Both the position numbers and the translations under genes were made by a program. Under the pieces are notes generated by a model that did no database searches, was not told where the DNA came from, and saw only the letters and a list, made by a program, of their open reading frames with translations. From assembly GCA_965202645.1 (NCBI GenBank), contig OZ241840.1:492088-556087 (forward strand): a stretch of DNA of 64,000 nucleotides. The letters run 5' to 3'. The first letter of the stretch is position 1. Each line of letters begins with the position of its first letter. This document shows positions 1 through 59,974 of the stretch, in pieces. Source of the stretch: Bdellovibrionales bacterium (GTDB taxonomy: Bacteria > Bdellovibrionota > Bdellovibrionia > Bdellovibrionales > UBA1609).

Positions 1-670
1 TAACGCTGTCGTCATTATGCGAGTGTTCCGAGATATAATAATGCAGCAACTCGTGAATAACAACAATATGAAAATCAAAGTCATTGCTGTATATCTTATC
101 TCGGTTAATCCAAATATCGGATTCTATCGAAGAGGAAACAACACCTAACAGAGGGATGCGTGTTCCTTTTTTGGTGTTTGTTCCGTATTCTCCGCCCTCA
201 AAATAAGAGGCTGGAACAAAACAGACCTCATTTTTTGGAAATTATATATTTGACACCGCATTTGTAAAACCTTGAACGGTTTATGCACGGCAAAAGTTAA
301 ACAAAATCAATAATTTATATTATTAACTATCTGTTTTCTTAGTTTTATGCACGCTTTTTGCGCTAAATCATTAAAACCTCCTGTAAGCCTTACATTTAAA
401 GGCCATCACAGGTTTTATGCGGCTTTAAGTGTATAATTCCCCATTTTTTCCATTCCCTGCAATGCAATTAACCGGATCAGGCTTTTCCTTGAACTTAAAA
501 AGGGTTTCCCCTACAATTTCCTCTACCTTATTAAGCACATACTTAATCTCACTCAACCTGTCGCTATGAACAATATAAGTTGGCGGATCAATGGGGCCTA
601 TTGTGTTATCCCCGCCAAAAGGCTGGAAGCACACCACAAAAAAGAAAAAACTCATTCCTGTATATCCCAT
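1..670 (-). pseudogene. HExxH-motif (putative zinc metallopeptidase-like) gene interrupted by a 205-bp MITE; 3' part runs off the window
   Basis: Minus ORF 670->450 (MGYTG...IAGNGKN) and open frame 236->1 (EVCFVPASYFEGGEYG...IVVIHELLHYYISEHSHND) share the same phase once 237-449 (213 bp = 71 codons) is removed. The HELLH motif was read directly. Confidence 0.6.
237..441. mobile_element. MITE family A, copy 1 (205 bp)
   Basis: Imperfect terminal inverted repeats GGAAATTATATATTTGAC and (rc) GGGAATTATACACTTAAA. Flanked by the exact 8-bp direct repeat CATTTTTT at 229-236 and 442-449. Near-identical copy at 44249-44453. Confidence 0.85.
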
Positions 671-951
671 TGTTAAGCCCCCAAGCTATCGTAAGCAATA
701 TCGTTATTTTTGTGGAAAAAGTCAATTTTTTTGCCGAGCATAAGTCAGACTTTAGGCGAAAATTGCGTTTTTTGCCGGTGTGCCGAGCTGGCGCTTTTCC
801 TCCCCGTTTTTTCAGCTGGCCTTTTTGTTATGGAATACAGCTAAAGGCAATGACAAAGATTGCCCCAGCTGAAAAAAGCCAACTGGCAGAGTTTGAGCGT
901 GATAGCCCGGTTTGCCATGATAAACTCTGGATTATGCCCTTAAATCAATAA

Positions 952-1028
952 TGGTCGGACCGACAGGATTTGAACCTGCGACTTCCACCGCCCCATGGTG
1001 GCGCGCTGCCTGACTGCGCTACGGTCCG
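952..1028 (-). tRNA. tRNA-Pro (anticodon GGG)
   Basis: Reverse complement folds as a cloverleaf: acceptor CGGACCG/CGGTCCG, anticodon stem CCACC/GGTGG with loop AT-GGG-GC, T-loop TTCAAAT, encoded CCA. Confidence 0.93.
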
Positions 1029-1090
1029 CAAAGAGGCTTTCAATATATACAGATTCTTTAAAAGGGGCAAACGGATAAAAATTTGCCTCT

Positions 1091-1721
1091 CCCCTATTTA
1101 TATGCGGAAAAATTTATTTGAGGAAATGGCCCCCACGCTTTTTTTAACTCTACCCTGCTTTACATGCGAAAAAATATCAACAGATCCAAATAGCTGTCTT
1201 TCCCCTATTACATGCGGAACAGCCAGAGCTGTCTGAAAAAGCTGGCGGAGGATACCCTGCTTTACATGTGGAAAAATCCGCTGGCCGGGTCGGGGTTTAT
1301 AAGCTGAGGCGGCAAAGCCATTCTCTGGGCTTATTCTAACCCCTTTCGCTTGCAAATACACAGGTTGACACTGAAACTGCCGCAATAACAAGGGCTGTTC
1401 CTGAGTTCGCCCTTACAAAGGCCCTGTTCCTATAAGTTATTGATTTTACTATAATTTTTCTTGTCAAGCCATAAGTTAAGACATACTAGGAAAAAAATCA
1501 GAATCCCTATATTTATAGCAATTTTTATACTAAACTAAGGTCTAAAAGGGCGAACTCGGGACAAGGGCTGTTAATCCTCCGCCCGCAAATACACAGTTGA
1601 TATGCGGGGCTGTGGAAAAAGTTGCCCTGAATGCCTCCGCCCGCAAATACACAAGTTGACAGGCATGTCTAACACGATCTCTGGCATTTCTGGATTCCGC
1701 CCGCAAATACACAGGTTGACA
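1091..1721. repeat. Interspaced repeat array (CRISPR-like layout, no cas genes in window): 4 A-type plus 4 B-type units
   Basis: B units CCGCCCGCAAATACACAGGTTGACA, with GCAAAT anchors at 1352, 1585, 1643 and 1703. A units CCCTGCTTTACATGCGGAAAAAT at 1091-1113, 1152-1175, 1202-1220 and 1254-1277. Intervening segments are unrelated to each other. Confidence 0.5.
1400..1560. mobile_element. MITE family B, copy 1 (161 bp)
   Basis: TIRs CCTGAGTTCGCC and GGCGAACTCGGG. Flanked by the exact 12-bp direct repeat ACAAGGGCTGTT (1388-1399 and 1561-1572). An inverted-orientation homolog lies at 56430-56586. Confidence 0.75.
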
Positions 1722-1744
1722 AAAAGATAAAGAGCTTTCATACT
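1716..1744 (+). promoter_or_regulatory. Candidate sigma70-type promoter for tRNA-His
   Basis: TTGACA (1716-1721), a 17-nt spacer, then CATACT (1739-1744), about 50 nt upstream of the tRNA. The -35 box is the end of the last B-type repeat. Confidence 0.35.
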
Positions 1745-1792
1745 GAATGTTGCTGATCGGGCCAAAAAAGGGCAAAACAGACGCGAAAAAAC

Positions 1793-1870
1793 GGCGGTCG
1801 TAGCTCAGTTGGTTAGAGCTCCAGATTGTGGTTCTGGATGTCGCGGGTTCAAATCCCGTCGATCGCCCCA
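1793..1870 (+). tRNA. tRNA-His (anticodon GTG)
   Basis: Extra 5' G (G-1) opposite discriminator C, acceptor GCGGTCG/CGATCGC, anticodon loop TT-GTG-GT, T-loop TTCAAAT, encoded CCA. Confidence 0.95.
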
Positions 1871-1930
1871 CCTTGCAAAATAGGCCCGTTTGAGAAAACA
1901 ACAAAATATAGGCTTTAAAGAGAGGAGAAA

Positions 1931-2359
1931 ATGAAATTAAAATTTATTCCCCAAAATATTGAGGTGGAGGCGGATCCCAGCAAAACCGTTTTGGAGATAG
2001 GCAGAGAGCTGGGGCTTTTTATTCAATCCTCATGCAATGGGATGTGCGCCTGCGGGGATTGCCGTGTTTTTGTTCGGGAGGGGGAAAGCCACGCGCTTTT
2101 TCCTTCAGTCCAGGAGCTAAAATTGATAGGGCAAGGGCATTACATGGATCAAAGGCGGCTGGCTTGCCAGCTCTATTGTTTTGGAGATGTTGTCATTGAT
2201 CTCTCTGAGCAGGAGGACAGAGCCAATCAGGGCAAAATCTCCCAGCAGTTTTTAAAAAGAGCGCAAAAAAAGAGTCCAGAGGACGCCTATTCCAAGGGCG
2301 ATATTCTCATCGAGGACGATGATGATATAAAACAGATCAAAGAGGGCAAAATCACTTAA
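1931..2359 (+). CDS. [2Fe-2S] ferredoxin-like protein with an acidic C-terminal tail
   Basis: Cys pattern C-x5-C-x2-C (SSCNGMCACGDC) plus a distal RLACQ cysteine, as in adrenodoxin-type 2Fe-2S ferredoxins. RBS-like GAGAGGAG lies upstream. Confidence 0.7.
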   Translation: MKLKFIPQNIEVEADPSKTVLEIGRELGLFIQSSCNGMCACGDCRVFVREGESHALFPSVQELKLIGQGHYMDQRRLACQLYCFGDVVIDLSEQEDRANQGKISQQFLKRAQKKSPEDAYSKGDILIEDDDDIKQIKEGKIT

Positions 2360-2620
2360 CAACTCAATGCTTTAAAATACTCTGCCCATATAGGGATTTT
2401 GATTTTTCGCATAGCATGTTTCGGATAGCTTGGCCAGAAAAGTTATAGTTCAGCCCAATAGCTTAAAAAATAGATTGCCGGCGATAAGCCTAGCCAGCCT
2501 CGCGTGGAGCCTAGCCCATAGTTTGAAAAATAATCATAAAAACAGCTTGTCTTTATAAGCTCAAAGCGCTTTTATGATATAGCTTGTGCGTTTTAAGATT
2601 TTACAGCTTTTTGCCGCGGT

Positions 2621-3175
2621 ATGAAAATTGAGTTTAAAACTTACTTTGACGAGGGCTGTTTCCCGCTCCACAGACTACAGCTTGTCAGAGGATCGCCAGA
2701 GAGAGTCATTTGCTTTCTTATGCTCAATCCCTCTATGGCAGACGACAAAACGGACGACCCGACAATCAAAAGATGCAAAGGCTTTATGACGGACTTAGGC
2801 TATACAGGTTTAATTGTGGTCAATCTCTTTACTGTTATTTCAAAAGATCCGGACAAAATTTATAAAGCTTTGCGGAAAGACTGCGCAATATGGCCAAAAA
2901 GGCTTAAAGCCCAGCCAAACAAGCCTAATTTAAAATCATCAGCTAACCATATAAAATACGCTTTTAAAATTTCTGAAATTATTGTGGCCGGATATGGAGC
3001 TTTAAAACACAAAAACGCAATTAAACGGGCGGAGGAAATTTTTAAAATGACAAAAAAACCTATTTATGCCCTTAAGCTGACAAAGAGCGGCTTTCCGGGC
3101 CATCCGCTCTATTTAAACAAAAATCGCCATTTAACTCTTTTCAGAAGGGCTGGCTCAGGACACAAAATAGCGTAA
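2621..3175 (+). CDS. DUF1643-family protein
   Basis: ICFLMLNPSMADDKTDDPTIKRCKGF...VVNLF matches my recollection of the DUF1643 signature (fimlNPS.ad...DpT...c). No search was run. Confidence 0.6.
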   Translation: MKIEFKTYFDEGCFPLHRLQLVRGSPERVICFLMLNPSMADDKTDDPTIKRCKGFMTDLGYTGLIVVNLFTVISKDPDKIYKALRKDCAIWPKRLKAQPNKPNLKSSANHIKYAFKISEIIVAGYGALKHKNAIKRAEEIFKMTKKPIYALKLTKSGFPGHPLYLNKNRHLTLFRRAGSGHKIA

Positions 3176-3254
3176 AAATAGTGTTGCGCCAGCGCTCACA
3201 AACGGCTTATATTTGTTTGGCCGGAATGAAGCCCGGTTAAAATCAAATTGCAAA

Positions 3255-3869
3255 ATGAGCGCATTGGATCGGGACATAAAAAACACTCTAGGCTACACCC
3301 GGCCCCTCGCTGTTTTAAATAGATGGCTCAAACAAGCTTGTAAAATCAAGGGGATAAAAGAGCCTTGGGCTATGGTTTTATCCACAAGCTATAAGCGGAA
3401 AGCCAGCTCCCGTGTTGTTCTTCTAAAAAAAGTCAATCAAGGACGGCTGATTTTTTACACCAATTATTTGAGCGAAAAAGGGCGGGATATAGCCCACAGC
3501 TCTTGGACAGCTGTTAATTTTTATTGGCCCCAGCTGAGTCAGCAAATCCGCATAGAGGGAAAGGCTCAAAAGCTCAGCAGAAAGCAGTCCGTTTTATACT
3601 GGAAAACCAGATCCCGCTCCAGCCAGCTCAGCCAATGGATCTCAAAACAGTCTCAAGAGGCGGAATCCAGACAACAGCTGAAAAATTTAAAAAAAGCGGC
3701 GGAAAGGCGCTTTAAAAATAAAGAGATTCCCTGCCCAAAAAATTGGGGAGGCTATGCTGTGTCCATTCAGAAAATAGAATTTTGGAAAAACCGGGATCAT
3801 CGCCTGCATGACCGCTTTTTGTTCAAAAAAAAAGGCTCTGGATGGGAAAAACAAAGGCTTTTCCCTTAG
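3255..3869 (+). CDS. pdxH: Pyridoxamine 5'-phosphate oxidase
   Basis: Collinear with E. coli PdxH: RWL.QAC, FYTNY.S.KG, ...WGGY.V....IEFW..R.HRLHDRF...P at the C-terminus. The ORF is open from 3213; the Met at 3255 fits the homolog length better. Confidence 0.9.
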   Translation: MSALDRDIKNTLGYTRPLAVLNRWLKQACKIKGIKEPWAMVLSTSYKRKASSRVVLLKKVNQGRLIFYTNYLSEKGRDIAHSSWTAVNFYWPQLSQQIRIEGKAQKLSRKQSVLYWKTRSRSSQLSQWISKQSQEAESRQQLKNLKKAAERRFKNKEIPCPKNWGGYAVSIQKIEFWKNRDHRLHDRFLFKKKGSGWEKQRLFP

Positions 3870-3886
3870 TTTTAAGCGGGTTGTCG

Positions 3887-4066
3887 CTTGACCTAAATCC
3901 CATTATGATCTTCAGTTTTCCAGAGTTCAAGCTTTTAGGGTTAGCTGTGTTATGGATGGAGCCAGCCGGCTCAAGAGCCGGACGCCCGTCCCGATAAAAA
4001 TAAGCTTGGTCTCTGGAATAAAGGCAGGTTTAGCCTCGTGAATAGGTCAAGAAAGCTAGCTCAATT
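3887..4066 (+). repeat. Family C element, copy 1 (about 180 bp; candidate structured RNA or palindromic MITE)
   Basis: Roughly 85% identical by eye to the reverse complement of 12181-12361. Long-range complementary arms: 3887-3895 with 4043-4051, and 3920-3934 with 4002-4016. Inner hairpins CCGGCT-CAAG-AGCCGG and GGAC-GCCC-GTCC. Confidence 0.6.
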
Positions 4067-4221
4067 TAAAATTTTAGGCCGATTGTTTAACAGCCAGCCG
4101 GCAGGCTGAGGCTGTAAATAAGCCCTTGATTTTAGCTAAAACCGGGTTTTTAAAAGTTTTATAGGCCGGAGCGGAATTTTAAGCTATACTGCATTAGAAG
4201 GCAAGATTTAAGGAGCGCCTC

Positions 4222-5793
4222 ATGGGCTTTTATGAAACATTTTATATCTTTATAATGGGATGGCCTTTTGGCTTTTTGCTGGCCTGGATTTGGAGCAGTC
4301 TGGAAAAAAGGATCATGATCAAAAAAACAAAGCTGGAGGGAGGGCATATCCTCCAAGAGGCTCAAGAGAAAGCGGACGCTTTATTGGAGAAATGCCAAAA
4401 AGAGGCTCAAAGCACGCGGGAAAAAACATGGCGTATCTTTGAGAGGGAAAAAGAGCAAATCAAAGCCCATATCAAAACGCTTCAAGCTGTGGCGGATAAG
4501 AAGTCCCAGCAGTTGGCGCTAAAACACAGGGAAAAGAGCGCCCTTTTTAGCGCGCTGAAAAAAACCGCCCATCACATTCAGCGGGAGCATGCCCATTACA
4601 AAAAACAAAAGAGCCAACTGCGCTTGGATTTAAAACAACACGATCAAGACTCAGCTCAAAAAATTAAAAGCCATTTTTCCATTAACGCGGAAAAGCTAAG
4701 AGAGGAGCTGAAAAAAGAAATTGAGGACAGCTGGACAGATAAAATCAGAGAGGAATGGGAGGCGAAAAGCAAGCATAGCAAACAAAACCTTCAAAAAGAC
4801 TCTGTTTTTCTTTTAAATAAGGCTCTCAGCCGCTTTGACCGAGTTTATTGCCCGGAAAGAGGCATAAGAGCTGTCCCTTTTAAAACAGACAAACAGATGG
4901 AAAGAGCATTTGGCCCAGACAATGTTTATTTGAATGAGATTGAAAAAGAGTGCGGCGTGGATATTTTGCTCAACAAAGAGGACTCGCAGGCCTCTGTTTT
5001 TGGCATCGATCCCGTGCGCCGGGAGCTGGGCCGAGTCACTTTAAAAAAACTGCTCAAAAAGAGAAAAATAGATCTGCCGTCCATAAAAAAAGCTGTTCAG
5101 CGCTCTAAAAAAGATCTATTTGCCAAAATCCGCCGGGATGGGCAGGCCATCTGCAAAAGATTGAGGCTTAAAAATGTGGCGCCGGAGGCGCAAAATATGA
5201 TGGGGGCTTTGAGGTATAGATATTCGTTTGCTCAAAATCAGCACTTTCACTGTGAGGAGGCGGGCTGGCTTTGCGGCTTATTGAGCGCGGAGTTGAGTTT
5301 GCCGGTAAAGCCGGCGCAGAGAGCGGGCATGTTCCATGACATTGGAAAAGCCATGGATCACTCCATTGAGGGAAATCACGCTGTGATTGGAGCGGAGTTT
5401 CTCTCCAAGCATGGGGAGAGAGAGGAGATTCTTCACGCTGTCCGGGCGCATCACCATGATGTTCAGCCCTCCACCGCTTTGGCCTATTTGGTCATTGTCG
5501 CCGATTCTATCTCAGGCTCCCGTCCGGGCGCCCGCAGATTCACAGAGGATTCTTACAGCCAAAAAATGGCCAGTTTAGAGAGAATTATAGACAGCTTTGA
5601 GAACATTGAGGACGCGTATATTATGAGCGCCGGCCGTGAAATGAGAGTTATAGCGGACAACAAAAAAGTCAGCGATCAAGAGGCTTTAGAGCTAAGTCAA
5701 AAGATTGCCAGAAAAATTGAAAAAGAGTGCGCTTATCCGGGATTGATTAAAGTCACTGTTGTTTTGCACAGTGAAAAAACAGCCATAGCTTAG
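4222..5793 (+). CDS. rny: Ribonuclease Y
   Basis: N-terminal hydrophobic segment, long coiled-coil, KH-like region, and an HD domain (GMFHDIGKAMDH...HHHD). Confidence 0.93.
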   Translation: MGFYETFYIFIMGWPFGFLLAWIWSSLEKRIMIKKTKLEGGHILQEAQEKADALLEKCQKEAQSTREKTWRIFEREKEQIKAHIKTLQAVADKKSQQLALKHREKSALFSALKKTAHHIQREHAHYKKQKSQLRLDLKQHDQDSAQKIKSHFSINAEKLREELKKEIEDSWTDKIREEWEAKSKHSKQNLQKDSVFLLNKALSRFDRVYCPERGIRAVPFKTDKQMERAFGPDNVYLNEIEKECGVDILLNKEDSQASVFGIDPVRRELGRVTLKKLLKKRKIDLPSIKKAVQRSKKDLFAKIRRDGQAICKRLRLKNVAPEAQNMMGALRYRYSFAQNQHFHCEEAGWLCGLLSAELSLPVKPAQRAGMFHDIGKAMDHSIEGNHAVIGAEFLSKHGEREEILHAVRAHHHDVQPSTALAYLVIVADSISGSRPGARRFTEDSYSQKMASLERIIDSFENIEDAYIMSAGREMRVIADNKKVSDQEALELSQKIARKIEKECAYPGLIKVTVVLHSEKTAIA

Positions 5794-5837
5794 CCGGCGC
5801 CTCAATTATCACGGAGGCTGGATTTGAAAGCTCGTGC

Positions 5838-5935
5838 TGAGTTCGCCCGCCTTACATTGGACTATAATGTTTCTTATCAAGCTGTCCATTAAGGCATGCT
5901 ATGAAAGAGTCCCTATATTTAAGCATTTTTTATGC
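5838..5935. mobile_element. Degenerate, truncated family B MITE
   Basis: Begins GCTGAGTTCGCCCGCCTTACA and shares ACTATAATnTTTCTTnTCAAGC and TCCCTATATTTA blocks with 1400-1560. The right TIR is absent. Confidence 0.4.
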
Positions 5936-6072
5936 CAAAAACAATGGCTTTGCCCGGCCTTTTAATCCGTACGATCCTCTGGCTCCAAAATAGCTTTCAT
6001 CCCTTGCTATTTGACTTTGGGAAACAGGCTGTTTTTCCCGCAGCGCTCAGCTATTCTTATACAAATGTTTTT

Positions 6073-8206: not shown

Positions 8207-8436
8207 TGTCGGCTCTATTGGCGGGGGTTATGGGACGCGGGGCGTGGCAAATGCTTCCCCCGTCTATTGGCTGGCTGAAAATGGCAGAATGTATGGGGGT
8301 CGGACGCGCGGCTGGTCGTGGCAAATGCTTTCCCCGTCTATTGGCTGGCTGAAAATGGCAGAATGTATGGGGGTCGGACGCGCGGCTGGTCGTGGCAAAT
8401 GCTTTCCCCGTCTATTAGTTGGCTTAAAATGGCGTC
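8207..8436. repeat. 74-bp tandem repeat, about 3 units
   Basis: GTGGCAAATGCTTTCCCCGTCTATTGGCTGGCTGAAAATGGCAGAATGTATGGGGGTCGGACGCGCGGCTGGTC starts at 8244, 8318 and 8392. The last unit decays into the 3' end of the DoxX gene. Confidence 0.9.
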
Positions 8437-9900: not shown

Positions 9901-10199
9901 GCAGATCCTCCTGTTTTAAATAAGTTTTTAAGCCTCTTTCAAATCCCGCCAATTTGCCTCTCCCGGTAAAAAAAGGGGGATCGATATAAATTTAAGCCTC
10001 TTTCAAATCCCGCCAACCCGCCAATTTTCCTCTTTCCAGCTGAAAACTTGATGCTTTTTTTATCAGGGCCTCTCCCCTTTTATAGCAGATCGGCTTATGA
10101 ATTCCCAGCAAATTCAATTTGAGCCAGTCATTCCTATAAAAAGACAGGCGCTCGCCTAAAAGCAGGCTTTATTTTGCCGCATTTTTTTTGGAAAGGCCA

Positions 10200-15011: not shown

Positions 15012-15657
15012 AAATAAAAAAATACGTACAAAATTTTTTTATGTGTCAATGTCCCGCCGGGCAAAAATGGTGTCACAAATCCGGCGGCGGCTTTGACTGT
15101 TTTGAGCGATGCAAGGATTGGGGCAAAGAATGGAACAGCTCAAGCAAAACATGCGTGGCTAGATGTTCAAGTGGTCTAGTATGGAATGGCAAACGCTGTG
15201 TCAGAAAATGCGATGGGACTGGGGAGAATGGGAAGGGACGGGATCACGACTCCAGCGCCTGCCGCTCCTGTGTGACTATTCCTGCTGAAGATGGAGTAAA
15301 TTGGATCGTCGCCGGCTCCAATCGCGGCCAGATCGCTGGAGACTGTATTCCGCAAAATACTAATGATCCTCCCCCCCCCGACCACATATAACGGTTTTCA
15401 AAATAAATGTTATTGCGGTGCGAAGATATGTCCCGATAGCCAACAGCCTTAAGATAAGCCAGCTCAGTTGAATTGTGGCCCACGGCTGGGAGTCAATTCA
15501 GCCGGCAGTTTACTCCCGGCCGTCCGCCTCTTTTTTTTGTGGCCACCGGCTTAATAACCCAGTTTGTAAAATTTTCACACTAGAGAGATTTAAGATAATT
15601 TAAGTTTTCTTTTTTTTACTGTGATATAAAATCCTCAAACAAACCATAGGAGGATTT

Positions 15658-18174: not shown

Positions 18175-18370
18175 TAAGTATTTAATCGGCTCATTTTGAC
18201 TTTTTCTTAAATGGCTATAGCTATTGAGGCCGCGGCTGGGAGTCAATTCAGCCGGCAGTTTCCGCCTAAAATTTATCTTTGGCCTGTTCCTGTGGATGAG
18301 CCTTTTACCGGCAAGAGTTTTAAGCTTCTTCCTGTGAAAGAGTCTTTTTTCTGAATGGAGCATTTGTTAT

Positions 18371-24749: not shown

Positions 24750-24960
24750 AAGAATCTTTTATTTATCCACTGGGGAGCGATCCAAAACTTCAGGATAAAA
24801 TCGTATCCTATTCCCTCCGCCTCATCATAAGCTTCTCCAGACAATATAGCTCAGATGCGGATGTGACGGGCGGCAGGGCCAATATAGAGAGCCAGCAGGG
24901 CAAACAGCTGATGAGGATTATTGAGGCTTAATCCCCCTCTTCTCCAGCCAATATTTTTCA
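24750..24960 (-). pseudogene. Degenerate duplicated fragment of the adjacent cysK-like gene
   Basis: 24752-24850 aligns with 25196-25300 (…GAGCGATCCAAAACTTCAGGA(A)TAAAATCGTATCCTATTCCCTCC…). A second CTCCAGCCAATAT block follows. Confidence 0.55.
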
Positions 24961-24971
24961 CATACAAAATT

Positions 24972-25943
24972 TTAGCTCAAATCTGAGGAGGATAGAGGAA
25001 ATCCCCTCTTCCTCATCCAATCATCATTTAAAAATTTGCTCATATAGTTTTGTATCCCATCAGGCAAAATAATGACGCAATTTTGCCCTTTCTTGAGCCT
25101 TTTAGCCTCTTTTAAGCCGGCGTAAACAGCCGAGCCGGAGGACCCTCCGCATAAAACGCCCTCCAATCGAATCACTTTTCGGGCCATAGCAAAAGAATCT
25201 TTATCTGTGGTTTTTACCCATTTATCCACCAGGGAGCGATCCAAAACTTCAGGAATAAAATCGTATCCTATTCCCTCCACCTCATAAGCCTGAATAGGCT
25301 CCTCTCCAGCCAATATAGAGCCAACAGGGTCAACCCCTATTATTTCACAATGAGGGCAGGATTTCTTAATCCGTTTGGCCAGCCCTGTTAAAGTTCCGCC
25401 GGTCCCCGCCCCCGCCACAGCCATATCCAAACGGCCATTGAGATCGGATAAAATCTCTTCCGCTGTTCCCTCATAATGAGCCATGTAATTGGCCGGATTA
25501 GAATATTGATCCAAAATATGAGATCGGGGCATTTCCTCATTCAGCTTTTTAGCCACGCTGATATGGCTTTCCGGAGAGCTGGAGGCGGCTGACGCGGGCG
25601 TTCGGATAATTTTTGCCCCCAAGAGTTTTAAAATGCTCTCTTTTTCCCGGCTCATTTTTTCCGGCATAACAATGAGCGCCTTATAGCCTAAAACCGCTCC
25701 GGCCAAAGCAATGCCAATGCCCGTATTGCCGCTGGTTGGCTCAATTAAGGTGTCTCCCGGCTGAATAACTCCCTCCTCTTGGGCTTTTTTAACCATGTTA
25801 AAGGCAATGCGATCTTTAACTGAGCCTCCGGGATTAAAAAACTCGCATTTGCCGTAAATATTGGCGGGCAAATCTCCGGCTATTTTTTGCAATTTGACCA
25901 GAGGGGTTTTCCCGATGGCCTCCAAGATATTGTCAAAAAGCAT
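24972..25943 (-). CDS. cysK: PLP-dependent cysteine synthase / cystathionine beta-synthase family enzyme
   Basis: KCEFFNPGGSVKDRIA (PLP Lys), TSGNTGIGLA and GGSSG motifs. EGIGYDFIP resembles CBS-type enzymes. No CBS-pair domain is present. Confidence 0.88.
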   Translation of the reverse strand: MLFDNILEAIGKTPLVKLQKIAGDLPANIYGKCEFFNPGGSVKDRIAFNMVKKAQEEGVIQPGDTLIEPTSGNTGIGIALAGAVLGYKALIVMPEKMSREKESILKLLGAKIIRTPASAASSSPESHISVAKKLNEEMPRSHILDQYSNPANYMAHYEGTAEEILSDLNGRLDMAVAGAGTGGTLTGLAKRIKKSCPHCEIIGVDPVGSILAGEEPIQAYEVEGIGYDFIPEVLDRSLVDKWVKTTDKDSFAMARKVIRLEGVLCGGSSGSAVYAGLKEAKRLKKGQNCVIILPDGIQNYMSKFLNDDWMRKRGFPLSSSDLS

Positions 25944-30600: not shown

Positions 30601-30794
30601 AGGGCCATTTTAACAAGAAGTTTTAAATTTTACAACTGGAGAAACCGGCTGGCCGGCTCAGCTTGAAAAAAATCCCGCTTTATCTTCAGGAGCTTTGCGC
30701 TTTACAGCCGGTATAATTTGAGGCTCAATCCTTTTTTTGTCATAATCCACATTGATGGCTGGGAAGAGCCGGCATAAAAACAGAAAATATCAAC

Positions 30795-32723
30795 TCAATC
30801 CTCTTTTTTGTCATAGTCCACATTGATGGTCTCGCTGTCTCCCCCGCTTTCGCCCTCCGGTTTTTTCTCCTGTTTTTTTTCCCGGCTGGAGCTGTCCTCT
30901 TTTTTTGCGTCCTCTTTTTGAGTTTGCTTATAAACCTCCTGGCCAATTTGCTGAAAATTTTGCTTCACCTGATCTCTGATATTTTTCAGCTCATCTATGT
31001 CTATTTCATCTTTTTTCAAAGATTCTCTGGCTGTTTCAAAAGATTTTTCAGCCTCCGATTTCATGTGAGATGGGATTTTTTCCTCGTTTTCCTTTATAAT
31101 TTTTTCACACTGATAGATCATCTGATCTAATTCATTTCTTAAATTGACTATTTCTCTCCTTTTGAGGTCCTGCTCCTCATAAACCTGAGCGGATTTGATC
31201 ATTTGGCTAATCTCCTCCTCGCTCAAGCTGGGTTTGTCAATGCGAATATTTTGGCTTTTCCCTGTCGCCTGATTTTTTGCGGAAACATGAATAATCCCAT
31301 TGGAGTCAATGTCAAAAGAGACCTCAATTTTAGGAACTCCTCTGGGAGCGGGAGGAATATCCCTCAAATCAAATCGCCCCAGAGTTTTATTGTCCTTAGC
31401 CAAGCCTCTCTCCCCCTGAAGAACATGGATGGACACAACATTTTGATTGTCCTCCGCTGTGGAAAAGACCTCTGATTTTTTTGTGGGAATGGTTGTGTTT
31501 TTAGGGATTAGAGCGGTCATTACCCCGCCCAAAGTCTCTATGCCCAAAGACAAAGGCGTCACATCCAACAGCAGAACATCCTTTATCTCATTGGACAAAA
31601 TGCCCGCCTGGACAGCGGCTCCGGCCGCCACAACCTGATCGGGATTGACTGAAAGATTTAAGTCTTTGTTAAAAAAATTTTTCACCGCGGACTGGACCGC
31701 CGGAATGCGTGTGCTTCCCCCAACCATGATCACCTCATTGATTTCATCCACTGTGAGATTGGCGTCCTTTAAAACTGTCTCGCAGGGCTTTAGAGTTTTT
31801 TGAACCAGATGATCGGTCAACTGCTCAAATTTAGATCGGGTTAAAGATATGTCCAAATGCTTCGCGCCCCCCTCTCCAGCTGTAATAAAGGGAAGGTTAA
31901 TGGAGGTCTCCTGGGCGGAGCTAAGCTCCATTTTGGCCTTTTCCGCCGCCTCCCGCAGTCTTTGAAGGGCCATTTTATCCGCTCTCAAATCAATGCCCTC
32001 CATTTTTTTAAACTCATCAGCCAGCCAGCCTAAAACCGCCTCGTCAAAATCGTCTCCGCCCAGCTTTGTGTTTCCGTTTGTGGACTTCACCTCCACCAGC
32101 TGATCTGTAATGTCCAAAATAGAAATATCAAAAGTCCCTCCGCCAAAGTCATAAACAGCGACCAAGCGGTTCTCCTTTTTATCCATTCCGTAAGCCAAGG
32201 CGGCCGCTGTAGGCTCATTGATAATCCTTTTGATTTTTAAGCCCGCCACTTTGCCGGCGTCTTTTGTCGCCTGCCGTTGGGAATCATTAAAATAAGCGGG
32301 AACTGTGACCACCGCCTCTTTCACTTCCCGGCCTAAATAAGACTCCGCGTCTTTTTTGAGTTTGGATAAAATGAGAGAGGCCACTTTTTCCGGGGAGATT
32401 TCCTCACCGTGGACCAGGAAAGCGCAGTTTTCACTGCCTGATTTTTTAACTGTTTTAAAGGGGTAATTTTTAATTTCATCTTGAATTTCAGAATACAGCC
32501 GTCCAATAAATCTTTTAGAGGAAAAAATGGTGTTGCTGGGGTTGCTGACAGCCTGCCTTTTAGCAATTTGGCCAACCAGAATATCCCCTTTTTTGCCAAA
32601 GCCAACCACAGATGGCGTCGTGTAAGCCCCCTCCGCATTGGTTAAAACTTTAGGCTTGCCATTTTCAATAATGGACACCACAGAGTTTGTTGTCCCTAAA
32701 TCAATGCCGATAACCTTTCCCAT
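30795..32723 (-). CDS. dnaK: Chaperone DnaK (Hsp70)
   Basis: [17 protein letters not shown] and VGGSTRIP signatures, with a full-length Hsp70 layout. Confidence 0.97.
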
Positions 32724-33063: not shown

Positions 33064-34179
33064 TTAAAACAATTTTCTCTTTTTTTCTGAAATGGATTCC
33101 CGTTTGATGTCCGCAATTTCCCTCAAAAGCTCCTCTTCTCTTTTTTTAAGCTTTTTAGGCAGATCTACATGGATTTCACATATCAAATCGCCCCTTGTGG
33201 GATTATTTAAGCTGGGCAGGCCCCGATGAGGGAGGCGAATTTGCGCTCCGGGCTGGGTTCCGGGGGGGATTTTGACAGTCTCTTTCTCTGTCAATCCCCG
33301 CAGAGATTTTTCAGTCCCTAAAAGAGCTTGCAGATAAGAGATGGAAATAGACGCTCTGAGATCCCGCCCATCTTTTACAAACAGGGAATGGGGCTTTAAG
33401 CGAACTTCCATATAAAAATCACCGGGCGGCGCGCCGGAAGGGCCAGGCTCCCCTTCGCCCTGAAGGCGAAGTTTTGTCCCACTGCTGACGCCGGGCGGGA
33501 TTTTCACAGTCAAAGCTCTTTTTTTCCGGACAATCCCTTTGCCGTAACAATTTCCGCAAGGGCTTTCTAAAACTGAGCCTTGCCCTCCGCAGGAAGAGCA
33601 GGCTCTGGCTACAGAAAAAAAGCCTTGTTGAGAGATATGCTGCCCGCGGCCCTTGCATTGGCGGCAGGCTGTCCTTTTAGTTCCCGGCTGAGCGCCGGAG
33701 CCTTTGCAAATAGAGCAGGAGCTATGGCCGTGAAAAGAGATTTCCTTTTCCGCCCCGGTCAGAGCCTCTTTTAAGTCTAATTTCACCTCATGGTAAAGAT
33801 CAGCCCCTTTTTTGACCCTTTCAAAGTTAGAGGAGGAAAACAGCTCCTCAAATCCGCTAAAGCCTCCTCTAAAGCCTCTGCCAAAAAAGTCAGAAGCGCC
33901 AAAAATATCTTTAAAAGCCTCAAAAATATCCCCCACATCCTGAAAGCCTCCCCCTCCATTAAAGGCGCTGTGGCCGAAGCTGTCATATTTTCGCCTTTTT
34001 TTGGGATCGCCTAAAACTTGATAAGCCTCAGAGGCCTCTTTAAACTTCTCCTCCTTGCCCTTATCTCCTTTGTTTCGATCCGGATGATATTTAAAGGCCA
34101 GCTTTCTATAAGCTTTTTTAATCTCATCCTGAGAGGCGGTTTTAGAGACAGACAGAATGTCATAATAATCTTTAGGCAT
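33064..34179 (-). CDS. dnaJ: Chaperone DnaJ
   Basis: J-domain MPKDYYDIL...KYHPD, G/F region, and four CxxCxGxG zinc-finger motifs. The start is set at MPKDYY (ORF open to 34194). Confidence 0.95.
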
Positions 34180-34372
34180 AAAAATTTCCCTCAAGCTTTC
34201 TCAATCTCATCCTGAGAGGCGGTTTTAGAGACAGACAGAATGTCATAATAATCTTTAGGCATAAAAATTTCCCTCAAGCTTTCTCAATCTCATCCTGAGA
34301 GGCGGTTTTAGAGACAGACAGAATGTCATAATAATCTTTAGGCATAAAAATTTCCCTCAAGCTTTTGAGCCT
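34111..34372. repeat. 83-bp tandem triplication covering the dnaJ RBS, start codon and first 20 codons
   Basis: ATCTCATCCTGAGAGGCGG starts at 34121, 34204 and 34287. Each upstream unit encodes [23 protein letters not shown]. Confidence 0.95.
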
Positions 34373-35898: not shown

Positions 35899-36011
35899 TT
35901 AACGCCAATAAAGCCTATAATGTCAAACCGCTAAAAGGCTGAGCGGCAGACAATGACAAGTCCTGATAACCGCCAATAAAGCTTATAATGTCAAACCGCT
36001 AAAAGGCTGAA

Positions 36012-36856: not shown

Positions 36857-37265
36857 GTGAATCTTAAATTGCGGGATCAGCGGCTGGTTTTTATTGTCGG
36901 CCCTGCGGCGGCCGGAAAAACAGACTGGGCGCTCCAATGGGCGGAGCGGGACTCAGCCTGTATTTTAAATAGCGATGTTTCTCCAAACTCCACAATGGGA
37001 AGTGAATCTTAAATTGCGGGATCAGCGGCTGATTTTTATTGTCGGCCCTGCGGCGGCCGGAAAAACAGACTGGGCGCTCCAATGGGCGGAGCGGGACTCA
37101 GCCTGTATTTTAAATAGCGATGTTTCTCCAAACTCCACAATGGGAAGTGAATCTTAAATTGCGGGATCAACGGCTGGTTTTTATTGTCGGCCCTACGGCG
37201 GCCGGAAAAACAGACTGGGCGCTCCAATGGGCGGAGCGGGACTCAGCCTGTATTTTAAATAGCGA
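36857..37265. repeat. 145-bp tandem repeat (2 full units plus a partial third) duplicating the miaA 5' end including the P-loop
   Basis: GTGAATCTTAAATTGCGGGATCA starts at 36857, 37002 and 37147. Units are near-identical. The upstream copies end in ...ILNSDVSPNSTMGSES*. Confidence 0.95.
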
Positions 37266-38966: not shown

Positions 38967-39533
38967 ATGAGTCTTAAAGGCCCTTTTGTTATAGTGTCCG
39001 GCCCCAGCGGAGCGGGAAAAACCTCATTCATTCAAAAAAGTTTGGAGGAGTGGCCGCAATTCTCCAATACTGTCAGCTGGACCACCCGCCGCCCCCGCAA
39101 AGGGGAAAAAGAGGGGGCCTTTTATCGTTTCATCACAAAAAAACAATTTGAAAAGCTCAAAAGCAGTGGAGAGCTTTTAGAATGGGCCCGTGTGCACAAT
39201 GATTTTTACGCCACATCAAAAAAAGAGATTGAAAGGCTATGGCGCAAGGGGCAAGCCATTATCAAAGACATTGATGTTCAAGGATGCCGCTCCATTAAAA
39301 AAATTTTCCCGCACAGCGTAAGCGTTTTTATTTATCCCCCCTCCATCCATGAGCTGAAAAAGCGCATGTTAAAAAGAGATCCCTCTTTAAAAGAGGGAGT
39401 GGAGCAAAGGCTGGCCTCAGCCGCCGCGGAAATGGCGCAGGGCCGGAAATATGATTTTAAAATCGTCAATGACTCCTTTGAGGAGGCTTGGGGGGAATTT
39501 CAAAAAATACTCGCCCAAAGCTTAAAACCCTGA
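38967..39533 (+). CDS. gmk: Guanylate kinase
   Basis: GPSGAGKTS P-loop, TTR.PR.GE..G..Y.F, and adjacency to yicC. Confidence 0.95.
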   Translation: MSLKGPFVIVSGPSGAGKTSFIQKSLEEWPQFSNTVSWTTRRPRKGEKEGAFYRFITKKQFEKLKSSGELLEWARVHNDFYATSKKEIERLWRKGQAIIKDIDVQGCRSIKKIFPHSVSVFIYPPSIHELKKRMLKRDPSLKEGVEQRLASAAAEMAQGRKYDFKIVNDSFEEAWGEFQKILAQSLKP

Positions 39534-39740
39534 GCCGCCCGGACAAAAATTCTGTGTTTCAAGCTCAATCAGCCGCCTCCTCAATGCCGCGCCACTGAGC
39601 CGCCCGGACAAAAATTCTGTGTTTCAAGCCAGCCGTCCCTTAGCCTGTAAAAAATCCCCTCTATCTCTATACAACATAAGCGGTGGCGGGCTTGGGAAAA
39701 CTCAACCGCCCAAAGCGGGAGTTGGCGGACGGGCTGTAAA

Positions 39741-44605: not shown

Positions 44606-45000
44606 TCCCTTTAAAATGCTATTAAACTCTGCCACCGGCGCCTTTGCTTATCAAAAAAAATGAGCCATAAATAAGGCAAAAAAAATAAAAGAATACGCAA
44701 AAACTTTAACCGCAAATAAAGACAAGGCTCTCATAAAAGCCTTATCGGCTTTTTCATCAAAATTTATAAGCCGTGCGCTTTTTTAGGATCTCTGCCGGCT
44801 TGGATCTGGCTTAAAATCAAATAAAGCCAGCCGTTTTTTCCAAAAAAAGAGGAGCTATCCGTTTAGACCAGGGGTCGGGAGAAGGCTTGGCATCAAGCCA
44901 GCCGTTTTTTCCAAAAAAAGAGGAGCTATCGTTTAAACCAGAGGCTGTAAATAAGCTGGCCGGCTTGTAAAAATAAGCTTTTGCCCTTAAAATAAAAAGC

Positions 45001-48654: not shown

Positions 48655-49090
48655 TATTTTTAAAAAATTCATTGAAATCTAAGTTTTTGGCTGAATGTGA
48701 CAATCCGCAGGACTGGCTTTGCTTTGCCGGCATGAGGGCGCCCATTATACTCGCATTGTTTTCCGAGTGCCCCGGCTCCGCTTTGCCGGCGTGAGAGCGC
48801 TGTATCTGAGCCATAGCCCCTCCATTATTTCTCCTCTCTATTCCCTCGCATCCCGCTAATAACATAATTTACCCGCCTTTTTGTAAGCTCATTATTTTTA
48901 AAAAATTCATTGAGACCTAAGTTTTGGCTGAATTTGAAAATCCGCGGGCTGGCTCCGCTTTGCCGGCGTGAGAGCGCTGTATCTGAGCCATAGCCCCTCC
49001 ATTATTTTTCCCCTCTATTCCCTCGCATCCCGCTAATAACATAATTTACCCGCCTTTTTGTAAGCTCATTATTTTTTCAAAAATATGGCT
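48655..49090. repeat. About 238-bp tandem duplication containing copies of the 3' end of gene 49089..50276
   Basis: TAAAAAATTCATTGA starts at 48661 and 48899. Each unit ends GCTAATAACATAATTTACCCGC, mirroring the real gene end GCTAATAACATGATTTACCCGC. The first unit has an extra inner duplication with a 62-bp period. Confidence 0.85.
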
Positions 49091-50276
49091 AATAACATGA
49101 TTTACCCGCGTTTTCTGAGCAAAAGGATTGAATAAACCCACTCATTCTTTTAAAAATGCTGGCGCTGTTGTTGGAGCCAGCCTCCGCGAAAATATCCCGG
49201 TCTGAATGGCTTTTTTTGCCGGATGCGCTGTTTAAAGCTAATTTAGAGCTTGCCATTCCTCTTTTAGAATTATAGCCCCGGCCGCCGGCTGAATAGGAGT
49301 ATCTCCCACTGCCGGTAAAAGAGCCAGCGGAAGCTCTGGCGGATCGGAGATTTCTCTCGTCGCCGTCCTCCGAGTCTTCAGCGCCGGATTCCCCACTGCC
49401 CGCGAGCTTATTGCCGCTCTCCCCCGAAGAGCGATCTTTAGTGAATCCTTTAGAGGGTATCCCTCCTGTCAGCGAAGCGTTTGAAGAATCGGAAAGGCCG
49501 TCAGAGTTTAAGGAGGCAGCTACAGCGTCATCAGAGTTTGAGGAGCCGGCTGGGCCGCCGGAGGGCTGGCCGGAAGGCTTGCCGGAAAAGCCTGCCAAGC
49601 TTTTAGCGGAAGATCTAGGCGAAGAAGGCGGGATGGGCGTGTTGGAATTATTTTTGTTAGCGCTATCAGCAAATGTTTGTCCAGAGTAAGAGCCGGGGGA
49701 GCTGGCTTGTGGCATCTCTGGAGTGGGCGGGGCCGCAGAGCCTCCGTTTGCTCCGCAATCCGCCCCTTCACAGCCTCCCAGCTTTTTTTTCGCCAGCAAA
49801 GAGGCGGCGGATTGCATAGCGGACAGCAAGCCTTGAAGCCCAGCCGAACTGCATGTAGCGGACTGGGCCCTGCATCGCGCTAAAAAGCTTTCGTTGTCCT
49901 GTGAAGTATCAGTCCCTTCGTCGGCTGCACAGGCCGCCTCACATGCGGCTATGGCAGTTGTGCATTTTCTCCATCTGTTTAAAGCCGCAACAGAAAGAGC
50001 GCTGTTGATGGCCGCATTGGCTTTATGAGCGGTTGAGGCTGAGGCTCCGCTTATATTTTGAGTGGTGTTTGATACGACACTGGCCACCATAGCGTAATTT
50101 TCAATATTCATGCCGGAGGCGGCCTGTTCAGCGGCTGTGGCCAATTCGTTCGTGCAACCGGTGCTGGAATCTTCTGATGATGATAAAAAACAAAATCCGG
50201 CAAAAAACAAAAGCCCTGTTTTAAAAAGCACACTCCAAAAAGCGCCGTCCCCGGCTCCTCTCAAATCCCTAAACAT
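49089..50276 (-). CDS. Hypothetical secreted Ser/Gly/Ala-rich protein
   Basis: ATG at 50276 after GAGGGAGAGG (ORF open to TTG 50300). Hydrophobic N-terminus, Cys-containing helical region, and a long S/G-rich tail. Confidence 0.5.
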   Translation of the reverse strand: MFRDLRGAGDGAFWSVLFKTGLLFFAGFCFLSSSEDSSTGCTNELATAAEQAASGMNIENYAMVASVVSNTTQNISGASASTAHKANAAINSALSVAALNRWRKCTTAIAACEAACAADEGTDTSQDNESFLARCRAQSATCSSAGLQGLLSAMQSAASLLAKKKLGGCEGADCGANGGSAAPPTPEMPQASSPGSYSGQTFADSANKNNSNTPIPPSSPRSSAKSLAGFSGKPSGQPSGGPAGSSNSDDAVAASLNSDGLSDSSNASLTGGIPSKGFTKDRSSGESGNKLAGSGESGAEDSEDGDERNLRSARASAGSFTGSGRYSYSAGGRGYNSKRGMASSKLALNSASGKKSHSDRDIFAEAGSNNSASIFKRMSGFIQSFCSENAGKSCY

Positions 50277-52404: not shown

Positions 52405-52728
52405 GCAGGCTCTTCAGTCTTCTCTATATTGACTCAAGCTAAACAGATAAGCCAACTGATAATACAGCTCTTCAGCTTGAGCCTTCCCCATATTGACTCA
52501 AACTACACGGCTAAGCCAACTGATAATACAACTCTTCAGCTTGAGCCTTCCCCATATTGACTCAAACTACACAGCTAAGCCAACTGATAATACAGCTTTT
52601 CAGCCTAGACCTTCCCTATATTGACTCAAACTACACAGCTAAGCCAACTGATAATACAGCTTTTCAGCCTAGACCTTCCCTATATTGACTCAAACTACAC
52701 AGCTAAGCCAACTGATAATATGAACTGA
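52405..52728. repeat. 64-bp tandem repeat x5 immediately upstream of dapD
   Basis: TATTGACTCAA starts at 52427, 52491, 52555, 52619 and 52683. Confidence 0.95.
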
Positions 52729-56418: not shown

Positions 56419-56429
56419 CTAGGGATCAT

Positions 56430-56586: not shown

Positions 56587-56612
56587 CCCCGGCTCCCGAT
56601 AGCTAAGGCTCA

Positions 56613-59907: not shown

Positions 59908-59974
59908 CCCTCCAAAAGCTGTTGAGCTGTAACCAAAATTAGCCCATTTGAAACATTAAAATCTTGGCCCATGA

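Follow-up and report, generated by a model that had tools for sequence, protein, structure and literature searches.

A CRISPR-like array between tRNA-Pro and tRNA-His genes that may have arisen by serial duplication of promoter DNA around short fillers

The 765-bp divergent intergenic region that separates a tRNA-Pro gene from a tRNA-His gene in a Bdellovibrionales genome carries two series of short direct repeats, here called A and B units. This raises the question of whether the locus is a CRISPR or has some other origin. We addressed it within the window, by which we mean the whole 64-kb stretch of DNA that was analysed, and by database scans. The array is probably not an immune memory. Our preferred explanation, to which we give somewhat better than an even chance, is that the tRNA-Pro/tRNA-His promoter region was inflated by serial local events in which a short target was duplicated and the copies were set apart by filler DNA. 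The array would then most likely be a by-product of this genome's habit of making a second copy of about 30 bp of DNA and leaving a filler of similar length, unrelated in sequence, between the two copies.

All eight units are direct repeats on the plus strand between tRNA-Pro(GGG) and tRNA-His(GTG) (Table 1). The two tRNAs were the only known RNA families found by an Rfam scan, the ORFs overlapping the array had no Pfam match in a check of coding potential, and TRF reported nothing at the array beyond one 16-nt repeat of 1.9 copies. A first-pass annotation had proposed a single eight-unit array, in which four looser A units precede four B units spaced 58–60 bp apart, with a MITE inside one spacer. 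This geometry was correctly described. The raw distances between the starts of the B units are 233, 58 and 60 bp, and taking out the MITE with its duplication (1400–1572, 173 bp) brings back a spacing of 60 bp in the first interval; four A units were likewise found, 62, 48 and 54 bp apart. The MITE is real, as judged from its terminal inverted repeats, its 12-nt target duplication and the further copies in the window. What did not survive was the single array: the core supposedly common to A and B units does no better than chance (z = -0.09, p = 0.49; column-shuffle test), and they are therefore treated as two separate four-copy families. A tRNA-derived origin of the units, as relics of att sites, was also rejected by local alignment against all four tRNAs of the window (p ≥ 0.08).

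Table 1. Coordinates of the features of the intergenic region and of representative X-Y-X structures in the window
Feature	Position	Strand	Description
tRNA-Pro(GGG)	952..1028	-	left boundary; ARAGORN, Rfam tRNA 60.4 bits
candidate tRNA-Pro promoter	1042..1070	-	TTGCCC-N17-TATATT; consensus scan, 9/12 matches
A1	1089..1113	+	CTCCCCTATTTATATGCGGAAAAAT; best partner A3, ~76% over 33 nt including 1077-1088
A2	1151..1175	+	TACCCTGCTTTACATGCGAAAAAAT; 23/25 identical to A4
A3	~1199..1223	+	TTTCCCCTATTACATGCGGAAC...; loosest copy
A4	1253..1277	+	TACCCTGCTTTACATGTGGAAAAAT; TTTTCCACA on its minus strand
B1	1345..1370	+	TTCGCTTGCAAATACACAGGTTGACA; 3 substitutions relative to B4
spacer S1, left part	1371..1399	.	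with 1573-1577, 34 nt after subtraction of the MITE and a single target-duplication copy
MITE target duplication	1388-1399 and 1561-1572		12 nt, ACAAGGGCTGTT
MITE	1400..1560	.	161 bp; terminal inverted repeats of 15-16 nt, CCTGAGTTCGCCCTT / AAGGGCGAACTCGGG
B2	1578..1603	+	TCCGCCCGCAAATACACAG-TTGATA; 1 deletion (1 nt) and 1 substitution relative to B4
spacer S2	1603..1635	.	33 nt; unrelated to S1 and S3; TTTTCCACA on minus strand
B3	1636..1661	+	25/26 identical to B4 (1 substitution)
spacer S3	1662..1695	.	34 nt
B4	1696..1721	+	reference copy; ends in six bases that serve as the tRNA-His -35 hexamer
candidate tRNA-His promoter	1716..1744	+	TTGACA-N17-CATACT; consensus scan, 10/12 matches; -35 from B4
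tRNA-His(GTG)	1794..1870	+	right boundary; ARAGORN, Rfam 66.7 bits
X-Y-X	8237-8433		X 49, Y 25, 2.7 copies
X-Y-X	9927-10016		X 26, 26/26 identical, Y 38
X-Y-X	35903-36010		X 40, Y 28
X-Y-X	36857-37265		X 119, Y 26, 2.8 copies
X-Y-X	39530-39629		X 35, 35/35 identical, Y 30
X-Y-X	49032-49114		X 27, Y 29
X-Y-X	58490-58599		X 40, Y 30
X-Y-X	59898-59998		X 30, 30/30 identical, Y 41

The B units alone have the outward form of a CRISPR: four repeats of 26 nt with 0–3 differences from B4, and three unique spacers of near-constant length (34, 33 and 34 nt). A 25-mer taken from the unit had three matches at up to three mismatches, where none was expected. The A units are only 72–92% alike, and the segments between them range from 23 to 67 nt, which is not the constant spacing of a CRISPR. 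Decay in one direction, previously proposed for the whole series, holds for the B units (B4 > B3 > B2 > B1) and not for the A units, in which A1 pairs with A3 and A2 with A4. The B spacers are indeed mutually unrelated, with 5–12 of 33–34 positions identical in register against a null of 8.3 ± 2.5, and no excess over real intergenic segments (z = 0.19, p = 0.38). An apparent residual homology against mononucleotide shuffles (z = 3.6) was a composition artefact, as it disappeared in the comparison with intergenic segments. Additionally, the spacers showed no sign of descent from each other or from their flanks, and no similarity to anything else in the window.

The B array overlaps a promoter. 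The site at 1716–1744 is the only good sigma-70-like sequence directed at tRNA-His, and the suggestion that the last unit supplies the TTGACA of a plausible tRNA-His promoter was confirmed, the hexamer of B4 being followed by N17 and CATACT. Direct reading of the sequence found no -10 partner for B1, B2 or B3. No promoter was found that points into the array; the sites between 900 and 1950 point outward to the two tRNAs, with one more upstream of the ferredoxin gene.

Could the B units nevertheless be a small orphan CRISPR, with cas genes lying outside the window or lost? The four repeats, the three unique spacers and the degenerate terminal repeat are what such an array would contain. We consider it highly improbable, since the repeat doubles as the -35 region of a promoter and every promoter-like site is directed away from the array, which thus has no leader promoter to transcribe it. 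Nor did any available test within the window or by database scan support a CRISPR identity, and the objections to it already raised by the first-pass annotation were right. The absence of cas genes from the window was upheld by PADLOC and Pfam scans of 55 ORFs, which returned no Cas family; the single 'Cas10a' match (E = 3.5e-8) is the HD domain of RNase Y. No Rfam CRISPR-repeat family matched positions 1–4000 at E ≤ 1, and folding of the repeat gave no significant hairpin on the plus (z = -0.06) or minus strand (z = -1.4). The window contains no second array with the B repeat and no other B-like or A-like motif, the regions upstream of tRNA-Gly and tRNA-Leu included. The B unit, like the whole tRNA-His gene, had no match in the JGI metagenomes; the unit had five single matches, all in unrelated genomes, among 185,579 GTDB species genomes, which by a rough estimate is about the chance expectation for a 19-mer. 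No match to phage and plasmid collections was better than E = 0.7, and the matches at that level lay in the MITE; S2, S3 and two fillers from other loci of the window had zero exact matches in IMG/VR, in databases that hold no phages of this lineage.

The strongest clue to the origin of the array came from the rest of the window, which contains many solitary look-alikes of other sequence. We refer to these as X-Y-X structures: a near-identical direct repeat X, mostly of 26–40 nt, on either side of unrelated DNA Y, with a period of 56–71 bp. At least 11 are present besides the array, each with a different X, and this is not what a dedicated CRISPR locus predicts. The X lengths are 26, 26, 26–35, 27, 30, 35, 36, 40, 40, 49, 119 and 129 nt; Y ranges from 14 to 48 nt overall and from 25 to 41 nt in most events. 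Copy numbers are mostly about 1.4–1.7 and not integers, because the repeat covers just a portion of the period and the remainder was unrelated from the outset. We counted 18 short-range repeat loci, mostly of X-Y-X type, per 64 kb in this window; the corresponding figure for relatives and unrelated loci was 3 per 94 kb, and shuffled sequences had 0. They are thus about nine times denser than in the other genomes, at roughly one per 3–4 kb overall and one per 600 bp of intergenic DNA.

Comparison with relatives established the direction of change at two of these sites (59898–59998 and 58490–58599), which are derived insertions. Between the sucD stop and the ndk start, relatives L009 and L010 have 10–21 nt and one copy of X, where the window has an X-Y-X; two genes further on, at the gene start in 58490–58599, both again have a single X. 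In each case a target duplication surrounds a spacer-length insert that is missing from the ancestral site. An anchored permutation test detected no similarity between the fillers in general and their flanks (p = 0.45) and a local test agreed, so that an origin of Y as a decayed copy of the flank was rejected; the exceptions were 44824–44930 and, at 30733 and 9927, small extensions of X. We also rejected a template nearby (no source within ±300 nt on either strand), a copy from elsewhere in the window (no match) and derivation from the MITE (no similarity). The fillers have a weak hairpin tendency (summed z = -2.2), and no common motif was evident by inspection at the X boundaries.

These results suggest a model for the array. 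Each event would duplicate a stretch of 25–33 nt and place some 33 nt of unrelated DNA between the two copies. The B unit would represent the tRNA-His -35 hexamer together with the 20 bp upstream, and three events on this one 26-nt target would generate B1-S1-B2-S2-B3-S3-B4. Only B4, the tRNA-proximal copy, would keep a -10 and act as the candidate promoter, whereas B1–B3 would be relics that are inert or bind RNA polymerase weakly at most; the A units would be an older, independent series beside the tRNA-Pro promoter. The gradient of identity to B4 fits serial addition at the promoter end, with the oldest copy farthest from tRNA-His. We infer that the process behind the X-Y-X events also produced the A and B arrays and that their extra copies are functionless, and the B array itself is probably a derived state. 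Our best guess at the mechanism is a break whose staggered ends are long and variable; these would be filled in, and filler DNA would be captured when they are joined. Against this reading, the B array is more ruler-like than the X-Y-X structures at large (X 26–129 nt, Y 14–48 nt), in that three events would have struck one 26-nt target at identical boundaries and left spacers of 33–34 nt. Such regularity would suggest either a site-specific process or a CRISPR-like integrase.

The main competing reading is an old tandem duplication of the whole period of about 60 bp. Its 26-nt units would have stayed identical through selection, because a regulator or the sigma or alpha subunit of RNA polymerase binds them, or through short-tract gene conversion, and everything between them would have become random. 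Whole-period arrays do exist in the window, as pure tandem repeats of 64 bp (five copies, 52419–52720) and of 83 bp (three copies at the dnaJ start, 34110–34365). Moreover, at 44824–44930 a core identical at 36/36 positions lies within flanks only about 70–80% alike, and the filler resembles the flanks (p = 0.001 and 0.018); differential conservation inside a duplication therefore does occur, and some X-Y-X structures may be old whole-period duplications with identical cores. Substitution-only decay of one spacer would also yield equal spacers of 33–34 nt, and the smallest perfect cores, at 26–27 nt, are near the minimal homology for RecA-dependent exchange. Yet we judge this reading unlikely, as the spacers retain zero residual homology although B3 and B4 are identical at 25/26 positions. 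Slipped-strand minisatellites of promoter regions resemble these loci in scale (56–83 bp) and in their intergenic and gene-end sites, but in such repeats the whole period is homologous between copies, whereas the A and B arrays and most X-Y-X structures repeat only part of it and the spacers stand at background similarity. The unit has no dyad symmetry by inspection, recurs neither at the window's two remaining tRNA genes, upstream of which it was sought, nor anywhere else in the window, and is repeated at 58–60 bp, or 5.5–5.7 helical turns, and so out of helical phase. This does not fit regulatory iterons or transcription-factor sites, whose motif is expected to recur at co-regulated promoters and to be symmetric or in helical phase. 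Fis sites and UP elements of rRNA and tRNA promoters are likewise repeated upstream of tRNA promoters with the last overlapping the -35, but the units here, besides these differences, are not A+T-rich. The young events, with X 100% identical, Y unrelated and a state derived relative to relatives, had filler from the start; together with spacers that bear no trace of a common copy, they argue for duplication with filler and not for whole-period duplication followed by decay. The fallback offered by the first-pass annotation, in which a promoter-proximal segment was duplicated in tandem and then decayed, came closer than a CRISPR, but is not quite right either, as the spacers bear no sign of having been copies of each other or of the flanks. 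Equally improbable as an orphan CRISPR is a replication origin or iteron-type protein-binding cluster built on the DnaA-box-like sites in the A units and S2. TTTTCCACA occurs three times within 711–1619, always on the minus strand, TTWTNCACA has 19 matches across the window against 4.9 expected, genes diverge here and the local GC skew switches sign near 1.5 kb. However, GC skew follows gene orientation all through the window, the majority of the A units have variants of the TTTTCCGCA type, the region is interrupted midway by a MITE, and the locus is rearranged relative to relatives, in which the ferredoxin gene follows tyrS and not tRNA-His. No dnaA or other origin-linked gene was among the strong Pfam matches of the window, and with only weak enrichment an oriC or DnaA-box cluster was rejected.

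A further possibility is that a Cas1-Cas2-type or casposase-like integrase, encoded elsewhere, inserts prespacers of about 30 nt off-target and duplicates the target each time, so that the B array would be an off-target site hit three times, a nascent CRISPR array. The ruler of Cas1-Cas2 imposes nearly constant lengths on duplication and insert. The process seen here resembles spacer integration, with a duplicated target around an unrelated insert (mostly 25–41 nt, period 56–71 bp), B spacers of even length and the newest and best-kept copy at one end, but its duplicated targets of 26–129 nt and inserts of 14–48 nt are too variable for such a ruler. We regard this as improbable, given also a window without cas genes, X boundaries with no evident common motif, and Y segments with no match in the window or in the phage, plasmid and IMG/VR collections scanned. 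The B array shares with CRISPR the alternation of repeats of about 26 nt with unique spacers at a period of 58–60 bp; in contrast, it has no leader promoter, repeat hairpin or known repeat family, no protospacers were found in the collections scanned, and its geometry recurs at 11 or more sites with unrelated repeats. Off-target Cas1-Cas2 integration that seeds new arrays is reported from E. coli (Nivala, Shipman & Church 2018, as cited in bioRxiv 10.1101/148544 and PMC6698737). A broader form of the idea, a promiscuous spacer-integration- or casposase-like activity that seeds repeat-spacer-repeat units at arbitrary sites, dozens to hundreds genome-wide, with the B array as one site after three rounds, seems to us only marginally less doubtful. 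If true, the array would be a natural snapshot of a CRISPR-like array born from ordinary DNA. In a weaker version, an undescribed break-repair or transposase-linked process would capture and insert DNA of about 30 bp, and the accompanying target duplication would be long and of variable length.

Under our preferred reading, the array is a cautionary case: a layout of four repeats and three spacers beside a tRNA gene, which CRISPR finders would flag, is read here as a promoter relic. The density of short-range repeat loci, mostly X-Y-X structures with foreign-looking filler, in one uncultivated Oligoflexia/Bdellovibrionota-like genome, with almost none in its relatives, is more interesting than the array itself. 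The enzyme, if identified, could show off-target CRISPR adaptation at scale in nature, and hence an origin of new arrays, or could reveal a new route to the expansion of promoters and intergenic regions in bacteria. In both cases, promoters and gene starts can be duplicated by such events with the genes left intact.

Long, variable duplications are also known from transposition. Insertion of IS1549/IS1634 elements generates direct repeats of 8–514 bp (PMC2266710), and restriction-modification units undergo 'insertion with long target duplication' (PMC2853133). As in those systems, long variable direct repeats flank DNA that is missing from the empty site of relatives. The X-Y-X insert differs in being only 25–45 nt long, with no terminal inverted repeats, family resemblance or similarity to the MITE. 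Repeats of more than 10 bp around an identifiable element were found at the MITE and not at the fillers of about 30 nt, and no transposase was identified in the window. The mechanism that we propose for the fillers could be related to whatever made the target duplications of the MITE, which are themselves long and variable, as with IS1549/IS1634-like elements: 12 nt within the array and 26 nt (24/26 identical) at a second copy on the minus strand (56430–56586, 86% identity). A third copy, degenerate, lies at about 5836–5940.

The interval between tRNA-Pro and tRNA-His contains two families of direct repeats, A and B, with every unit on the plus strand. A 25-mer of family B gave three matches at up to 3 mismatches, against none expected; the remaining copy, B2, has lost 1 nt. 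With B4 as the reference, B3 differs by 1 substitution, B2 by 1 deletion and 1 substitution, and B1 by 3 substitutions. Family A is more decayed, and its units fall into two pairs: A1 and A3, about 76% alike across 33 nt, and A2 and A4 (23/25). The spacers between successive B units (S1, S2 and S3) are strikingly uniform at 34, 33 and 34 nt, whereas those of family A are not (23-67 nt).

A first-pass annotation had described this region as a single eight-unit, CRISPR-like array with a core common to A and B. That core proved to be at chance level (z=-0.09), and the interval instead holds two adjacent four-unit families. Its observation was nevertheless largely right. The inter-unit segments are, as proposed, mutually unrelated: in-register identity among S1-S4 was 5-12 of 33-34 positions (8.3+-2.5 expected), and, against a null of real intergenic segments of the window, spacer similarity lay at background (z=0.19, p=0.38). 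A residual similarity seen against shuffles (z=3.6) disappeared with this null. A MITE does indeed lie inside one B spacer, and its removal restores the 60-bp spacing between B units. Likewise, the last unit supplies the TTGACA of the predicted tRNA-His promoter: the hexamer is formed by the last six bases of B4, and the site is the only good sigma-70-like one aimed at tRNA-His. B1-B3 have no -10 partner, and no promoter-like sites are directed into the array. ORFs overlapping the array showed no coding signs. A tRNA origin of the units was also considered and rejected.

Coordinates of the repeat region and of related repeats in the window
Feature	Position	Strand or direction	Unit or X	Y	Remarks
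tRNA-Pro(GGG)	952-1028	minus			left boundary of repeat region
Predicted weaker promoter	1070-1042	toward tRNA-Pro	TTGCCC-N17-TATATT		
Family A	1089, 1151, ~1199, 1253	plus			four looser copies
Family B	1345, 1578, 1636, 1696	plus	26 nt		four copies
MITE	1400-1560		161 bp		in first B spacer; 15-16-nt terminal inverted repeats; 12-nt target duplication
Predicted tRNA-His promoter	1716-1744	toward tRNA-His	TTGACA-N17-CATACT		sigma-70-like
tRNA-His(GTG)	1794-1870	plus			right boundary of repeat region
MITE-related third copy	near 5836-5940				degenerate; between rny and rpmE; no recognisable right end
MITE second copy	56430-56586	minus			86% identity
X-Y-X	9927-10016		26 nt, 26/26	38 nt	
X-Y-X	30733-30829		26-35 nt, 25/26 over 26-nt core	36-45 nt	
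X-Y-X	35903-36010		40 nt, 39/40	28 nt	TTGACA within X
X-Y-X	39530-39629		35 nt, 35/35	30 nt	
X-Y-X	48710-48800		21-32 nt	27-38 nt	older copy
X-Y-X	49032-49114		27 nt, 25/27	29 nt	across stop codon
X-Y-X	58490-58599		40 nt, 34/40	30 nt	across start codon
X-Y-X	59898-59998		30 nt, 30/30	41 nt	across sucD stop and ndk start
Multi-copy X-Y-X	8237-8433		49 nt	25 nt	2.7 copies
Multi-copy X-Y-X	36857-37265		119 nt	26 nt	2.8 copies; miaA 5' end
Multi-copy X-Y-X	48771-49082		129 nt	48 nt	about 1.7 copies
Classical whole-period tandem array	34110-34365	minus	83 bp x3		covers dnaJ start codon and first codons
Classical whole-period tandem array	52419-52720		64 bp x5		divergent intergenic region

The second copy of the MITE is bounded by a 26-nt target duplication, CCCCGGCTCCCGATAGCTAGGGATCA (24/26; whole 56404-56612). 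The two lengths, 12 nt and 26 nt, indicate that the element makes long, variable target duplications, and that some enzyme in this genome makes long, variable staggered cuts.

A CRISPR interpretation of the array was not supported. PADLOC and Pfam scans found no Cas protein in the 55 ORFs covering the window, which represents 64 kb of a 2,207,895-bp contig, in agreement with the first-pass annotation; a 'Cas10a' match turned out to be RNase Y, through its HD domain, and the remaining matches were generic. No CRISPR repeat family in Rfam matched at E<=1, the two tRNAs being the only matches, and the unit has no significant fold on either strand. The search of phage and plasmid collections that had been proposed for the spacers gave nothing meaningful across the region (best E 0.7-0.8, in the A+T-rich MITE), and S2 and S3 had no exact match in IMG/VR. 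No further copies of the unit occur in the window or in JGI metagenomes; among 185,579 GTDB species genomes it gave five single matches only, in unrelated organisms, which by a rough estimate is near chance level for a 19-mer. That the region is a true orphan CRISPR array is thus highly improbable.

Short-range direct repeats are plentiful in the window (18 loci in 64 kb; the corresponding figures are 3 for 94 kb of relatives and unrelated loci and 0 for shuffled sequence). Once repeat length is set against distance, many prove not to be tandem duplications but take an X-Y-X form, in which a near-identical, sharp-edged direct repeat, X, flanks unrelated filler, Y. The solitary loci all differ in sequence, and several lie across gene starts, stops or -35 elements. 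They also differ in age, the two X copies having diverged by 0% to about 20%. At the three multi-copy loci the final copy is partial and the Y copies are identical; the 145-bp array at miaA carries the first ~39 codons in triplicate upstream of the intact gene. Y was related neither to the sequence preceding the first X nor to that following the last (local test; anchored permutation p=0.45), and no source for it was found within 300 nt on either strand, elsewhere in the window or in the MITE. Two further fillers had no exact IMG/VR match.

We compared the window with relatives, uncultivated bacteria labelled by NCBI as Oligoflexia or Bdellovibrionales MAGs. In two of them (L009 and L010), 10-21 nt separate the sucD stop from the ndk start and the junction sequence is single. 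In the window, a 30-nt junction made up of the final eight codons of sucD, its stop and the ATG of ndk is present in two copies separated by 41 nt of new DNA, sucD ending in one copy and ndk starting in the other. The gene at 57735-58520 has its first ten codons duplicated, the upstream copy decaying, with the same polarity. The comparison with L009 and L010 shows that both events are derived and that the filler is new rather than ancestral DNA. We infer that the intergenic and gene start or stop positions are what purifying selection leaves of random events; such positions would be expected because only they keep an intact gene copy, the periods mostly not being multiples of three. Between sucC and sucD lie 194 nt of novel non-coding DNA (60848-61041), with no flanking duplication seen; the gap in relatives is 6 nt or an overlap.

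Three relatives (L006, L007 and L008; ferredoxin 79-84% identical) have the order zapA, 5-FTHF cyclo-ligase gene, rny, tyrS and ferredoxin gene, with no tRNA upstream of the latter. The window (1794-5793) runs from tRNA-His through the ferredoxin gene and ORFs 2621-3175 and 3213-3869 (DUF1643- and PdxH-like by eye) to rny. The tRNA-His/ferredoxin junction is thus a lineage-specific rearrangement.

With a little better than even confidence, we read the array as a mutational by-product, a triple X-Y-X on one target, whose extra copies would have no function or would at most bind RNA polymerase slightly. B1-S1-B2-S2-B3-S3-B4 would represent three rounds at one 26-nt target, the -35 hexamer and 20 bp upstream in the tRNA-His promoter. 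The gene-proximal B4 would keep function and the distal copies would be progressively older, the same pattern as in single events at gene starts. Family A may be an earlier such series beside the tRNA-Pro promoter. We regard the array as a local case of a lineage-specific duplication-plus-filler process, which deserves a genome-wide look.

Our best guess for the origin of X-Y-X is a transposase- or break-repair-linked process, in which long staggered ends would be filled in and short filler DNA captured. IS1549 and IS1634 have long and variable direct repeats of 8-514 bp, without a mechanistic model (PMC2266710), and rearrangements of the type 'insertion with long target duplication' are recognised (PMC2853133). 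The observation fitting this guess least well is the B array, where one target was hit repeatedly with near-constant spacer length, and this sustains the idea that a CRISPR-type integrase is responsible. Indeed, X-Y-X shares the geometry of CRISPR spacer integration, and Nivala et al. (2018) reportedly described off-target integration by E. coli Cas1-Cas2 that seeds new arrays. However, X spans 26-129 nt and Y 14-48 nt, a far wider spread than would be expected of a ruler-based integrase, and neither a cas gene (in the 55 ORFs of the window) nor a protospacer was found, making this idea quite improbable. We consider the X-Y-X class a variant of long-target-duplication insertions and neo-CRISPR-like events.

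Equal spacer lengths would also be accounted for by an old whole-period duplication with units kept by selection or gene conversion, for which 44824-44930 provides a precedent, resembling a 71-bp tandem duplication (core 36/36 identical, flanks 70-80%). This would, however, need fully randomised spacers next to 25/26-identical units, as well as a unit function of which symmetry, phasing and recurrence at other tRNA promoters gave no sign, and we think it unlikely. A replication-origin or iteron cluster is suggested by the DnaA-box-like TTTTCCACA, which has three minus-strand copies inside 900 bp (711-719, 1267-1275 and 1611-1619); TTWTNCACA occurs 19 times window-wide, against 4.9 expected from shuffles. 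Yet dnaA is absent from the strong Pfam hits of the window and GC skew tracks gene orientation, leaving such a cluster scarcely credible.

Other repeats were noted. Three 31-nt units (54834-54965), spaced 45 and 56 bp apart, lie upstream of a gene whose start is at 54991; their inter-unit segments are mutually related, which indicates a decayed tandem array with indels. A 67-nt repeat (24761-24827 and 25221-25287, about 460 bp apart) has one copy inside a PLP-dependent enzyme gene (24972-25943, minus) and the other just past its 3' end, and seems to belong to a gene-fragment duplication that has decayed. Finally, a 39-nt direct repeat (15478-15516 and 18228-18266; 90% identical, 2750 bp apart) flanks an ankyrin-repeat gene together with the greater part of a 547-aa ORF.
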